Below, piece after piece: positions 34,328 to 36,656 of a DNA stretch of 64,000 nt. This DNA is from a virus: the IMG/VR virus record IMGVR_UViG_3300045988_123958. One strand, written 5' to 3'. Position 1 is the first letter of the stretch; each line of letters opens with the position of its first letter. The notes beneath the pieces are model-generated. The model had not been told where the DNA came from. It saw only the letters and a program-made list of their open reading frames with translations, and did not search any database. Position numbers and translations under genes: made by a program.

Positions 34328-35640
34328 TTAATTTAATAATTCATCTATCCATTCTTGCTTCATATTATTTGGAAATTCTTCGTCTATATTATGTTTTTTA
34401 TAATATTTATTCCAAAATTCAATATTGGCAAGAGCGCGAGCTTTATGCATAGGACAAATATAAGTAACTCTTTTATTAAGAATTCCAGTATCTTGATAAT
34501 TATATGCTTGACACCAAGCACAACCATTAGCAATAGGACATTCACGACATTCGTCAGAAGATTGAGTATAAGAATTAATTGCTTTTAATTCTTTTGTTAA
34601 TTGTTTTTGTTTTTCTGTTGTTGCTATTTCATTTTTATTTACATTTCCTATAATAAGAGGTGGGACGGAATCGCCCAGAGCATCTTCCATATATCGTAAG
34701 CAGGGGTATAAATTACCAGTATAATTCATAGCAATCATACTTCCATTTCCGCCGCACCAATTCTATAGATCATCTTTATTAGTCCAATCTTTTGGTCTAA
34801 ATAATTTCAAATCTGGATATTCAAAAAATGAAATATATACATCTTCTTCTAAATTATTATCAAGGAGATATTGTCCTAATTCTTGTAATTGTTTATAGTA
34901 AATTTTGGCGTGTTCTAAAGTCCAACCTTTTTCAAAAATTACATTCCCTAATATAGAAGTAAATCCTATGTCTAAAAGAGCTTTTACGGCATCATTTAAA
35001 TACATAACATTATCAGGAGATAAAGTAATTTTTGAACAAGGATATTCTCCGGTTTTTTTACGCCAATCTTTTATTGCTTTTACAACAATATCATAACTAC
35101 CTGACCCATCAGGGAATTTTCTACAAGCATCATGCAATTCTTTATTACCATCAATACTAATAGAAACAGATAGCCATTGCTTATATTTATCTAAAAATTT
35201 TTGTACTTTTGGATCAAAATATAATGTTCCATTAGTACAAATTAAAAATCTTGTAAAATAAATTAATGGACTGTTCATTTCAATTAATTTAGAAATTGTA
35301 TAATCCATTACTTTATCTATTAAATCTAAATTTAAAAAAGGTTCTCCACCAATAAAATCAAAGACTAAACCTATAATATTATCTGGGTCAAAGTAATCAT
35401 TTTTCTAAGGATTTACTATTAACATATCAATATATTTTTTAGCTGTTTCAAAATCCATTAAATGATTTTTTTTACAAGTTTGATAACAATAACTACATCT
35501 TAAATTACAAGCGTCAGTGACCTGTAAAGTTATATCAAAAACTTTATCGCTTTCATTTTTCCATAGTTCTGGATATAATCTTTGAATTGTATCACTATAC
35601 TATTCGAATTTACGTCTCATTCAGCATTATCATTAATTGT
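34328..35640 (-). CDS. radical SAM enzyme with C-terminal SPASM-like Cys-rich domain (peptide/protein maturase-like); 3 in-frame TAG
   Basis: CNLRCSYCY (CxxxCxxC) near N-terminus; C-terminal ECRECPIANGCAWCQAY...ICPMHKA; track ORFs 34763..35308 and 34328..34738 share one frame across a TAG. Confidence 0.65.
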
Positions 35641-35925
35641 TATTGTAATAATTTTTGCTTGGAAGTCAATACTCCAATAGGCATTATTACCATATTTTTC
35701 TAAATCATAATATTTTCCAACTTTATTTCTAATTTTATCATATTCAATAAATTTTTCAACGTATTCTTGATGATATCTTTTATAATTATCAGTATCCATA
35801 TTATTAAATGAAGTGCTATTCATCATATAAGTAATAATACTTTGACGAGCAAGAAGATCTTGATAAGCTCGTTCTAATTTATCATTTAATTCTACATTAT
35901 TAGCATTTACTGTAATTGTTTTCAT
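35617..35925 (-). CDS. hypothetical small protein between Cys-rich gene and radical SAM gene
   Basis: ORF track; overlaps radical SAM start by 24 nt. Confidence 0.4.
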   Translation of the reverse strand: MKTITVNANNVELNDKLERAYQDLLARQSIITYMMNSTSFNNMDTDNYKRYHQEYVEKFIEYDKIRNKVGKYYDLEKYGNNAYWSIDFQAKIITITINDNAE

Positions 35926-36047
35926 TATTTTTCTCCTTTTTATCTTATAAATTAACTTTTTAAAATTTTAGAATATAAAGACTTTAAAGCAGTAATTGCT
36001 TTCTGCATTTCAGATTTAGTACAGACATTTCCATTATAAGAAGTGTT

Positions 36048-36656
36048 CTACATTTTAGAAATATTTGTGAATATTTCATTTTTTAAGTTTGTATTAACTT
36101 TACTGTTAGAAGAAACTTTTGTAGGTAAAGTACTATATCCACGCCTAGATAATTCTTTATTTAACATAGTATAAATATTTGCAATATCAGCAGCATATAA
36201 AACGATTCTTAAATTAATAGAATTATAAAGATTTACATTAGCTGAAGTGGTACATCCATTATCGCAGCCTCCCGTACAATTGCCAGTACAAGCAGAACAG
36301 TCATGCCTACAACTAGCACTACATCCAACACATCCGCCAGAACAGCTTCCACTACAATCGGTGCGACAACTAGCACTACATCCAACACATCCGCCAGAAC
36401 AGCTTCCACTACAATCGATACTGCAAGAACCGCCACATCCAGAGCAACCTACATCACATCCGCCTGAACAACTATTACTACAAACTCCTCCGCATCCAGA
36501 GCAATTTCCATCACAGTCTCCTCTACAACTTCCTTGGCATTGGCTAGTGCCGCAAGTTTCACACATAGAACAATTACCGCCACAACCATGGTCACATCCA
36601 TTACTACAGCTTATAAAGCAAGTTCCGACACAACCCTATGTAGTACAATTAGCCAT
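36048..36656 (-). CDS. Cys-rich repeat protein (about 40 C-x3-C units in N-terminal 140 aa, non-Cys C-terminal tail); candidate radical-SAM substrate
   Basis: ATG at 36656 with GGAGG SD, TAG at codon 7; MANCTT[TAG]GCVGTCFISCSNGCDHGC...CSGSCSGGCVGCSASCRTD x2 ... Confidence 0.55.
36300..36425. repeat. 57-bp tandem repeat (about 2.2 copies) inside the Cys-rich gene
   Basis: acaactagcactacatccaacacatccgccagaacagcttccactacaatcg at 36309 and again at 36366. Confidence 0.8.

Follow-up and report, generated by a model that had tools for sequence, protein, structure and literature searches.

A candidate CXXX-repeat radical SAM modification operon in a TAG-recoded phage of gut bacteria

The 64,000-nucleotide stretch of the IMG/VR virus record IMGVR_UViG_3300045988_123958 analysed here, termed 'the window' throughout, carries on its minus strand the gene of a radical S-adenosylmethionine (SAM) enzyme close to that of a protein dominated by cysteine (Cys) repeats. 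These genes are best read, with a probability of about 0.6, as parts of a functional CXXX-repeat modification operon of a ~195-kb phage of gut bacteria of the Clostridia type, which decodes TAG as glutamine (Gln) and would install crosslinks of the thioether type on a ladder of Cys residues. The enzyme falls into a family that is already named on computational grounds; what appears to be new here is the reversed domain order of the target, the TAG-recoded genes, and the divergence of both the target and its small partner. Two roles are considered for the product: a component that belongs to the virion or is associated with the tail fibre, or a modified protein that lysis sets free.

Enzyme, Cys-rich substrate and small partner

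Translated with TAG as Gln, the radical SAM enzyme scores 405.8 bits (E = 2e-121) against NCBIfam TIGR04115, whose curated cutoff is 350, its residues 30–402 covering positions 4–359 of the 359-position profile. TIGR04115 is the computationally defined 'radical SAM peptide maturase, CXXX-repeat target family'. The second-best model is that of PapB (NF047865, 194.3 bits, below its cutoff of 340), and neither the SCIFF maturase model TIGR03974 (133.8 bits, cutoff 425) nor the anaerobic sulfatase maturase model TIGR03942 (77.9 bits, cutoff 349) reaches its threshold. In Pfam, Radical_SAM is matched with 42 bits and SPASM with 20.8 bits, just under the cutoff of 21.5; in PHROGs, the enzyme falls in phrog_1802. 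The CX3CX2C motif and seven Cys of the SPASM-type region are invariant in an alignment of the window enzyme with 16 homologues. By profile score and alignment, the enzyme is thereby assigned to TIGR04115 as a member with intact cofactor motifs. The closest solved structure is that of the thioether synthase CteB (PDB 5wgg, E = 9e-22), to which residues 28–395 align. This alignment opens at CteB residue 97, leaving without phage counterpart the N-terminal ~96 residues of CteB, which we take to be its recognition domain, that is, the recognition element (RRE) for peptides made by ribosomes and modified after translation (RiPPs). No RRE of the PqqD-like type was found, either fused to the enzyme or stand-alone, and the phage enzyme is predicted to have no recognition domain of its own.

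The substrate gene encodes a protein of two parts. Its array (residues 4–134) comprises 34 Cys-X3 or Cys-X2 units, two Cys-X4 units included, with 34–35 Cys in total and a recurring 4-4-4-4-3 spacing that defines a 19-amino acid (aa) period. Over these 131 residues, Cys accounts for 26%, Gly for 24% and Ser for 18%; there are eight Asp, found in units such as CRTD, CRHD, CSID and CRGD. The G+C content of the array is 47% versus 32% for the window. A 57-bp tandem duplication corresponds to one 19-aa, five-Cys unit that is doubled. In one relative (L001), a different 19-aa unit is additional and the protein reaches 253 aa, which suggests that the array gains and loses units. Family-wide, the distance from Cys to Cys is 4 (2218 cases) or 3 (894 cases) and scarcely anything else.

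The second part is a Cys-poor domain of ~100 residues at the C-terminus. When a profile of C-terminal tails of this type was compared with the Cys-free N-terminal domain from 42 other targets, hhalign gave a probability of 98.2% over 88 columns (E = 3.3e-14), and both share the motif (L/I)K..(V/I)..E(M/L).RR. By this profile alignment, it is a single homologous domain, placed before the array in most family members and after it in the window type. We propose that it acts as a docking or recognition domain. As judged by eye, the units flanking it are the best-conserved part of the array. Modelling of the tail domain of a close relative with AlphaFold2 (AF2) gave no usable fold (predicted local distance difference test, pLDDT, of 42), and in PHROGs the substrate has a weak match to phrog_6085 (E = 2.6e-5). 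The protein does not have the layout of a short precursor peptide with N-terminal leader and C-terminal core: it is 234 aa long, with the array at the N-terminus and the 100-aa domain at the C-terminus.

Other layouts are found among family targets. Two of them (L134:4179-5633 and L154:4164-5633) display the N-terminal domain, the array and, as a third part, a beta-rich C-terminal domain of 125 aa for which no Pfam or PHROG assignment was obtained. Another architecture, of ~265 aa and 64 Cys, is devoid of a Cys-free domain; it is seen in L024:6865-7662 and in some 27 IMG/VR loci such as L100-L127. The neighbouring gene in L024 has an apparent N-terminal domain with a short Cys stretch, and domain and array may be split there across two genes.

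Between the substrate and enzyme genes lies the gene of a 102-aa protein (p102). Among 80 bacterial and archaeal genome loci of the enzyme family (described below), p102 matches the open reading frame (ORF) directly upstream of the radical SAM gene in 38 (phmmer, best E = 7.7e-13), and its relatives can be aligned over their full length. A profile search against 1.84 billion cluster representatives yielded 116 relatives, nearly all of 90–120 aa. About ten are 190–220 aa long with two matched stretches, indicative of tandem duplication (P0149, P0162, P0163, P0192, P0209, P0212, P0221 and P0226 among them); the existence of these duplicated forms hints that the single-domain form acts as a dimer. 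The AF2 model (pLDDT 89.3) consists of a strand, two long antiparallel helices and a beta-hairpin (beta-alpha-alpha-beta-beta), a predicted fold that rules out p102 as a PqqD-like RRE. In a viral structure library, this fold is shared with three uncharacterised gut-phage proteins of ~90 aa (template modelling scores of 0.7–0.8). Since the enzyme appears to be without an RRE, p102 presumably helps to present the substrate.

The mechanism that we propose is built on these features. The enzyme would be directed to its substrate by the Cys-free domain, probably together with p102. SAM would then be cleaved to the 5'-deoxyadenosyl radical, as in PapB and CteB, and, close to each Cys, this radical would remove a hydrogen from a carbon of the side chain or backbone. 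A bond would then form between that carbon and the sulfur of the Cys, bound at an auxiliary Fe-S cluster. Repeated along the array, the reaction would create a ladder of small thioether rings and convert the protein into a heavily stapled, redox-insensitive rod of protein size. We infer crosslink formation, the thioether type and the acceptor residues by analogy with the related maturases.

Operon layout and reading of the TAG codon

The genes considered here are predicted to form a four-gene operon, because terminator-like hairpins are present on both sides and a promoter-like site lies upstream (Table 1). Four terminator-like sites were found where 0.7 were expected; the promoter-like site is a consensus match only, such sites being as numerous in the region as in shuffled sequences. 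The enzyme ATG overlaps the TGA of the p102 gene (ATGA), and a GGAGG sequence is located 9 nt 5' of the substrate ATG. The first gene of the unit encodes a 153-aa protein without Pfam or PHROG match, which is kept in all seven viral relatives whose fetched DNA extends that far. ORFs of 152–153 aa occupy the same position in L064 and L074 and have no detectable similarity to it. Two further ORFs were set aside: a downstream 145-aa ORF (33788-34225), which is past the terminator and matches only a PHROG of unknown function, and a plus-strand 156-aa ORF (36247-36717, with PPEQLPLQ repeats), which mirrors the codons of the array and is not a gene.

Table 1. Coordinates of the predicted operon, its sub-features and selected neighbouring genes in the window
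Feature	Position	Strand	Basis or remark
Terminator-like hairpin of the SPFH/flotillin gene, 5' unit boundary	37313-37348	-	15-pair stem, then T run
Best promoter-like site, TTTGCA-18-TATAAT with extended -10 TG	37149-37178	-	10/12 consensus matches
First gene of the unit, 153 aa	36671-37132	-	ORF with TAA/TGA-only stops; 2 in-frame TAGs
Cys-rich substrate gene, 234 codons	35952-36656	-	TAA stop; TAG at codons 7 (36636-36638) and 203 (36048-36050)
CXXX/CXX repeat array, codons 4-134	36255-36647	-	Cys spacing
Perfect 57-bp tandem duplication	36309-36417	-	Tandem Repeats Finder, 1.9 copies, 100% identical, score 218
C-terminal Cys-poor domain, ~100 aa, predicted helical, motif LNKELSRRGYSTL	35955-36254	-	hhalign to N-terminal domain of other targets
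102-aa partner gene (p102)	35617-35925	-	TAG-free; phmmer matches in genome loci
Radical SAM/SPASM maturase gene, 430 codons	34328-35620	-	TIGR04115, Pfam Radical_SAM and phrog_1802 matches; TAG at codons 7 (35600-35602), 72 (35405-35407) and 286 (34763-34765)
CX3CX2C motif (C38, C42, C45), radical SAM [4Fe-4S] cluster	35486-35509	-	Invariant, 17 aligned members
SPASM-type auxiliary-cluster region (C289, C307, C358, C361, C367, C370, C389)	34454-34756	-	Alignment
Terminator-like hairpin directly after the radical SAM stop, 3' unit boundary	34291-34329	-	18-pair stem, then T run
SPFH/Band 7/flotillin-like gene, 461 aa, directly upstream of the unit	37352-38737	-	N-terminal membrane segment, no TAG, own terminator
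Endolysin gene, 2 kb downstream of the operon	30870-32171		9 in-frame TAGs
GIY-YIG-type homing endonuclease gene	39609-40349		Pfam GIY-YIG and NUMOD; 5 in-frame TAGs
GIY-YIG-type homing endonuclease gene	18682-19578		Motif; 8 in-frame TAGs
GIY-YIG-type homing endonuclease genes	12252-12929, 25986-26675, 62382-63026, 28620-29369		Motif
GIY-YIG-type C-terminus of an ORF	19735-20550		Motif

This layout is visible only when TAG is not taken as a stop. Under the standard code, three of the four operon genes (all but that of p102) are broken, the calls for the radical SAM gene being fragments of 136 and 181 aa and that for the Cys-rich ORF beginning at an internal ATG only. Translation of the strand gives one unbroken frame per gene with TAG as the sole interruption, and comparison with relatives led us to drop the standard-code calls in favour of TAG as Gln. 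In eight IMG/VR relatives (enzyme 87–99% identical, contigs up to 197 kb), all operon genes are in frame and the sequence past each TAG is conserved. Where the radical SAM gene of the window has TAG at codon 7, L006 and L008 have CAA or CAG; at its TAG codon 286, L006 has CAA and L008 has AAA, and at its TAG codon 72, both have AAA. Conversely, L006 has TAG at codon 353, where the window has CAA for a Gln that is invariant in 17 family members. In L003-L006, a Gln codon stands in place of the second TAG of the Cys-rich gene. From these exchanges, TAG is predicted to be read as Gln in the window phage, and the operon would be expressed only under TAG suppression.

The opposite view, that the operon genes are decaying pseudogenes whose in-frame TAGs are true stops, draws on the fragmented enzyme and the shortened Cys-rich ORF just mentioned; we consider it extremely improbable. 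TAG interchanges with CAA and CAG even at the family-invariant Gln, the frames stay open past each TAG in all eight relatives, and synonymous differences outnumber non-synonymous ones (68:19, 82:39 and 73:57), a pattern from which the genes are judged to be under purifying selection. The use of TAG is also not restricted to the operon. In-frame TAGs number 89 among the 15,686 codons of the long minus-strand ORFs, all of which end in TAA (38) or TGA (10). TAG-rich examples are the endolysin gene, two of the homing endonuclease genes and the ORF at 7115-8863 (6); among core genes, there are nine TAGs in the endolysin gene, one in a gyrase/topoisomerase-like 817-aa ORF and six in a 582-aa RecJ-like ORF.

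The window also holds a minus-strand tRNA cluster (57755-63180) made of Cys(GCA), Lys(TTT), Gly(TCC), Ser(GGA), Ser(TGA) and Thr(TGT). Five of these six tRNAs serve the four dominant amino acids of the array (Cys, Gly, Ser and Thr), whose codon use includes TGT (26), GGA (18) and TCT (7). The match may be coincidental, large phages carrying many tRNAs.

With these gene models, the original prediction, made from the letters and a program-made list of ORFs alone, can be revised. Its three-gene minus-strand block at 34328-36656 holds as regards strand and position, the gene count rising to four with the addition of the 153-aa ORF. The 203-aa Cys-rich protein that it described has to be replaced by a 234-aa product: the shorter version passes the TAG at codon 7 and halts at that of codon 203, where relatives have a Gln codon followed by 31 conserved residues. 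The tail is nearly, if not strictly, Cys-free, with one Cys at residue 212. Its other observations are borne out, namely the 57-bp repeat at 36309/36366, which encodes CSGSCSGGCVGCSASCRTD twice, the region rich in C-x3-C, where Cys-to-Cys spacings in residues 4–134 are almost all 4 or 3, the 102-aa ORF, and the radical SAM enzyme with its CNLRCSYC motif and C-terminal Cys cluster, retrieved both by Pfam and by alignment. The proposed class, a RiPP-like or protein-crosslinking system, agrees with the TIGR04115 score above cutoff and with next-best models that describe the thioether-forming PapB and SCIFF maturases. What that first reading did not contain is the recoding of TAG to Gln, the existence of a named family, and the size of the targets, which are proteins of 160–650 aa and not short peptides.

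Family distribution, genomic setting and candidate roles

The distribution of the enzyme was surveyed by a genome scan limited to one genome per species, in which 80 of 266 matches were kept as loci, and by 74 newly fetched viral loci, giving 154 in all. Almost all of the 80 genome loci are from Clostridia, and 65 of them have a same-strand Cys-rich ORF within 4 kb of the enzyme gene, encoding 160–650 aa with up to 145 Cys. In IMG/VR, relatives of the enzyme are encoded on at least 528 viral contigs, and an adjacent same-strand Cys-rich ORF is present in 54 of the 74 viral loci. The closest named proteins are bacterial (Anaerosporobacter, Caproicibacterium), ~50% identical and filed under the TIGR04115 name; their loci are prophages. 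In Caproicibacterium, Baseplate_J and Mu Gp48 genes come before the cassette, and genes of a GH25 lysin and a holin after it; in Anaerosporobacter, the cassette follows a BppU_N fibre gene. A third prophage has the cassette a few genes upstream of an Amidase_2 lysin near the prophage end, with a bacterial tRNA-synthetase gene beyond, and two further loci lie on phage-like contigs of 121 and 196 kb. Besides Caproicibacterium, cultured carriers include Neglectibacter timonensis SN17, Eubacterium pyruvativorans i6, Desnuesiella massiliensis and Anaerobacterium chartisolvens DSM 27016. Among 150 flanking proteins from 45 loci, the top Pfam families are Amidase_2, Collagen, Amidase_3, Phage_Mu_Gp48, SH3, Phage_tail_fib, Tail_P2_I, RVT_1 with Mtd_N, BppU_N, Baseplate_J and holin. 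The enzyme family is thus mostly carried by phages and prophages. The original prediction had called the pairing of such an enzyme with a Cys-rich protein unusual in a phage, a claim contradicted by these viral counts, by the very existence of phrog_1802, and by flanks that, at bacterial-genome loci, consist mostly of phage tail, baseplate, fibre and endolysin families.

A same-strand ORF ending in the tip motif LWIDT..G..KYY.G..W..VWG is present in the flank of 66 of the 154 loci, a count made on cassette loci only. It is upstream of the Cys-rich gene in the cases inspected (e.g. L020:5989-6546, L064:5569-6375 and L056:4916-6319), and one such ORF scores as a PHROG tail fibre/minor tail protein. 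No copy of this motif was found in the 64-kb window.

Members outside Clostridia are L058 (a Methanobrevibacter metagenome-assembled genome), L026 (Treponemataceae), L039/L065 (Raoultibacter and Slackia) and L076 (Tenericutes), whose target attains 650 aa and 145 Cys; contaminated bins or phages with a broader host range could account for these members. A more distant set occurs in Erwinia phage vB_EamM_Huxley, where gp175 (L173:938-1147), a protein of 69 aa that ends in CNGSCSWSCSGGCSYG with four CXXX units, is encoded one gene (gp174) upstream of the adjacent radical SAM genes gp173/gp172 (L173:2063-4299). Gp172 is 25% identical to the window enzyme, and an endolysin and a tail assembly chaperone are encoded a few genes on. 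This Erwinia jumbo-phage set has the appearance of a small-scale CXXX system in jumbo phages of Gram-negative bacteria.

In the window, the operon is bordered by the SPFH/flotillin gene on one side and a PIN-PhoH gene on the other. At least six GIY-YIG-type homing endonuclease genes, very rich in TAG and recognised by an IYKITN...YIG motif, are dispersed through the replication region; Pfam was run on that at 39609-40349 only. A search of GenBank phage DNA with 12 kb around the locus returned no match.

Several results weigh against a functional CXXX-repeat modification operon acting by thioether chemistry. Asp and Glu together make up ~3% of family arrays, too few for PapB-type Cys–Asp links at most Cys, and a pure PapB-type reaction would be inadequate because these residues are too rare across the family. 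The two smaller operon proteins match the family models poorly: the substrate, its repeat pattern notwithstanding, reaches 13.7 bits (E = 0.069) against TIGR04114, short of the cutoff of 20, and p102 obtains 13 bits (E = 0.084, profile positions 10–89 of 90) against TIGR04116, for which the cutoff is 50. Relatives of p102 seldom match TIGR04116 either (5/33 at E < 0.01 and 1/63 at E < 0.001), and p102 is treated here as a putative divergent analogue or sister family of TIGR04116 with the same position and size. Some family targets are without any Cys-free domain, so that docking through this domain would not be universal. The operon is situated in a replication and nucleotide-metabolism region (DNA polymerase, primase, ligase, topoisomerase II and RNA ligase) and not in a tail module. 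None of the six tRNAs detected by ARAGORN in the window, which represents about one-third of the ~195-kb genome, is a suppressor with anticodon CUA. Finally, a literature search returned no paper on the TIGR04115 family, its chemistry or its link to phages. A different biochemistry has also to be considered, in which the Cys-rich protein binds metal or Fe-S clusters, like metallothioneins, and the enzyme performs formylglycine formation, methylation or epimerisation. An array with 25% Cys and small residues does resemble metal-binding proteins, SPASM chemistries are varied, and the anaerobic sulfatase-maturating enzyme (anSME) model is weakly matched. This explanation is nevertheless improbable, given that the best-scoring characterised models all describe Cys-thioether maturases and that the strict co-occurrence of enzyme and CXXX array argues for the array being the substrate. 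The formylglycine role in particular was rejected, the anSME score of 78 bits being far from the cutoff of 349 and no C/S-x-P-x-R sulfatase motif being visible in the array.

If the modification operon is accepted, two roles compete for its product. Synteny in temperate relatives and target size favour a virion or fibre-associated protein: the Cys ladder would form a virion fibre or shaft, or a tail-fibre accessory, with staples replacing disulfides that are unreliable in the anaerobic gut and the Cys-free domain serving as anchor. This is possible, if on balance doubtful. Cassettes of temperate relatives stand between tail-fibre or baseplate genes and holin/endolysin genes, the flanking families listed above include tail, baseplate and fibre domains, tip-motif ORFs are frequent, targets are of protein size with an anchor–shaft–head layout in L134 and L154, and the cassette comes without signal peptide, protease or exporter. 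Set against this are the position of the window operon amid replication genes with no tip motif in 64 kb, the fact that the tail-fibre/lysis junction is also a frequent site of cargo genes, and an extra C-terminal domain that fits no known receptor-binding family. Generalised to the family, the proposal would be that the CXXX/radical SAM cassette is primarily structural, dozens of irreversible thioether rings providing phages of strict anaerobes with a redox-proof tail fibre or shaft, of which the window version would be domain-permuted and dependent on TAG suppression; we hold this only tentatively. If true, it would be the first case of crosslinking of a virion protein by a radical enzyme, and a substitute for disulfides in the anoxic gut.

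Alternatively, the product may be a released factor, a role that fits the RiPP ancestry, the lysin close by and the small CXXX peptide of Erwinia phages. It would be a giant RiPP-like molecule with many rings, serving as toxin, signal or exclusion factor; it would be synthesised late in infection and set free when the cell lyses, or be produced from a prophage, and would act on rival bacteria or phages in the way of the bacteriocins that prophages encode. That the nearest characterised relatives of the enzyme make ranthipeptides, that the Cys-free domain is placed like a long leader (N-terminal) or follower (C-terminal), that an endolysin gene lies near the cassette in the window and in prophages alike, and that Erwinia jumbo phages keep a classic small precursor (the 69-aa gp175) near two radical SAM enzymes all speak for such a factor. 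We nevertheless judge it unlikely: genes for a leader protease, a transporter or immunity are missing from the cassettes, the targets, which reach 650 aa and 145 Cys, far exceed any known RiPP core, and no conserved cleavage motif was identified.

Significance and comparison with known systems

Systems of this type would go undetected in recoded phages because standard gene calls are broken or truncated; in close relatives, public gene calls of the tail domain are indeed truncated, at 71–127 aa. One genome-mining study took enzymes associated with an RRE as its starting point and dropped any predicted precursor of more than 600 bp (PMC10288494). Both filters, the RRE starting point and the 600-bp limit, would exclude the TIGR04115 family, which many phages and prophages of gut Clostridia carry, in prophages usually at the tail-fibre/lysis junction. 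Should the crosslinks be confirmed, the products would be the most heavily crosslinked ribosomal products known and would represent either a virion material of a new kind or a new class of factors that phages deliver. The enzyme could also be used as a multi-site stapling tool for repeat proteins.

Compared with the CXXX-repeat system defined by TIGR04114, TIGR04115 and TIGR04116, reportedly in the 2011 survey of radical SAM families by Haft and Basu, the window operon has the same order of target, ~100-aa protein and radical SAM enzyme, and the same Cys period of 4 or 3. It differs in that its target and small protein stay under the TIGR04114 and TIGR04116 cutoffs, in a domain order opposite to that of most members, the array preceding the Cys-free domain, in the addition of a fourth gene (153 aa) and the need for TAG as Gln, and in its location in a ~195-kb phage of lytic type, amid replication genes. 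As to the genetic code, gut phages with recoded stop codons (TAG to Gln, genetic code 15) were reportedly described by Ivanova and colleagues in 2014 and by Borges and colleagues in 2022. The window resembles such code-15 phages by TAGs that swap with CAA or CAG in conserved genes and by stops that are TAA and TGA only; its TAGs, however, extend beyond late genes to homing endonucleases and to RecJ-like and topoisomerase-like genes.

Among characterised enzymes, CteB, the SCIFF maturase acting on CteA (thermocellin), links Cys to Thr C-gamma. Its radical SAM core and SPASM region align with those of the phage enzyme, whereas its N-terminal ~96 residues have no equivalent there, and SCIFF peptides are of ~45 aa with six Cys. 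The other point of comparison is PapB, which matures PapA into the ranthipeptide freyrasin in Paenibacillus polymyxa and is likewise a radical SAM/SPASM enzyme acting on repeated Cys-X3 motifs; the window array, too, has C-x-x-D units. PapB joins Cys to an Asp or Glu located C-terminal to it, tolerates any spacing, and binds a short N-terminal leader through its RRE (PMC12373016). The phage enzyme, in contrast, appears to lack an RRE, and its substrate, a protein of 234 aa with 34 units, most without acidic acceptor, differs from PapA, a short peptide with six motifs.

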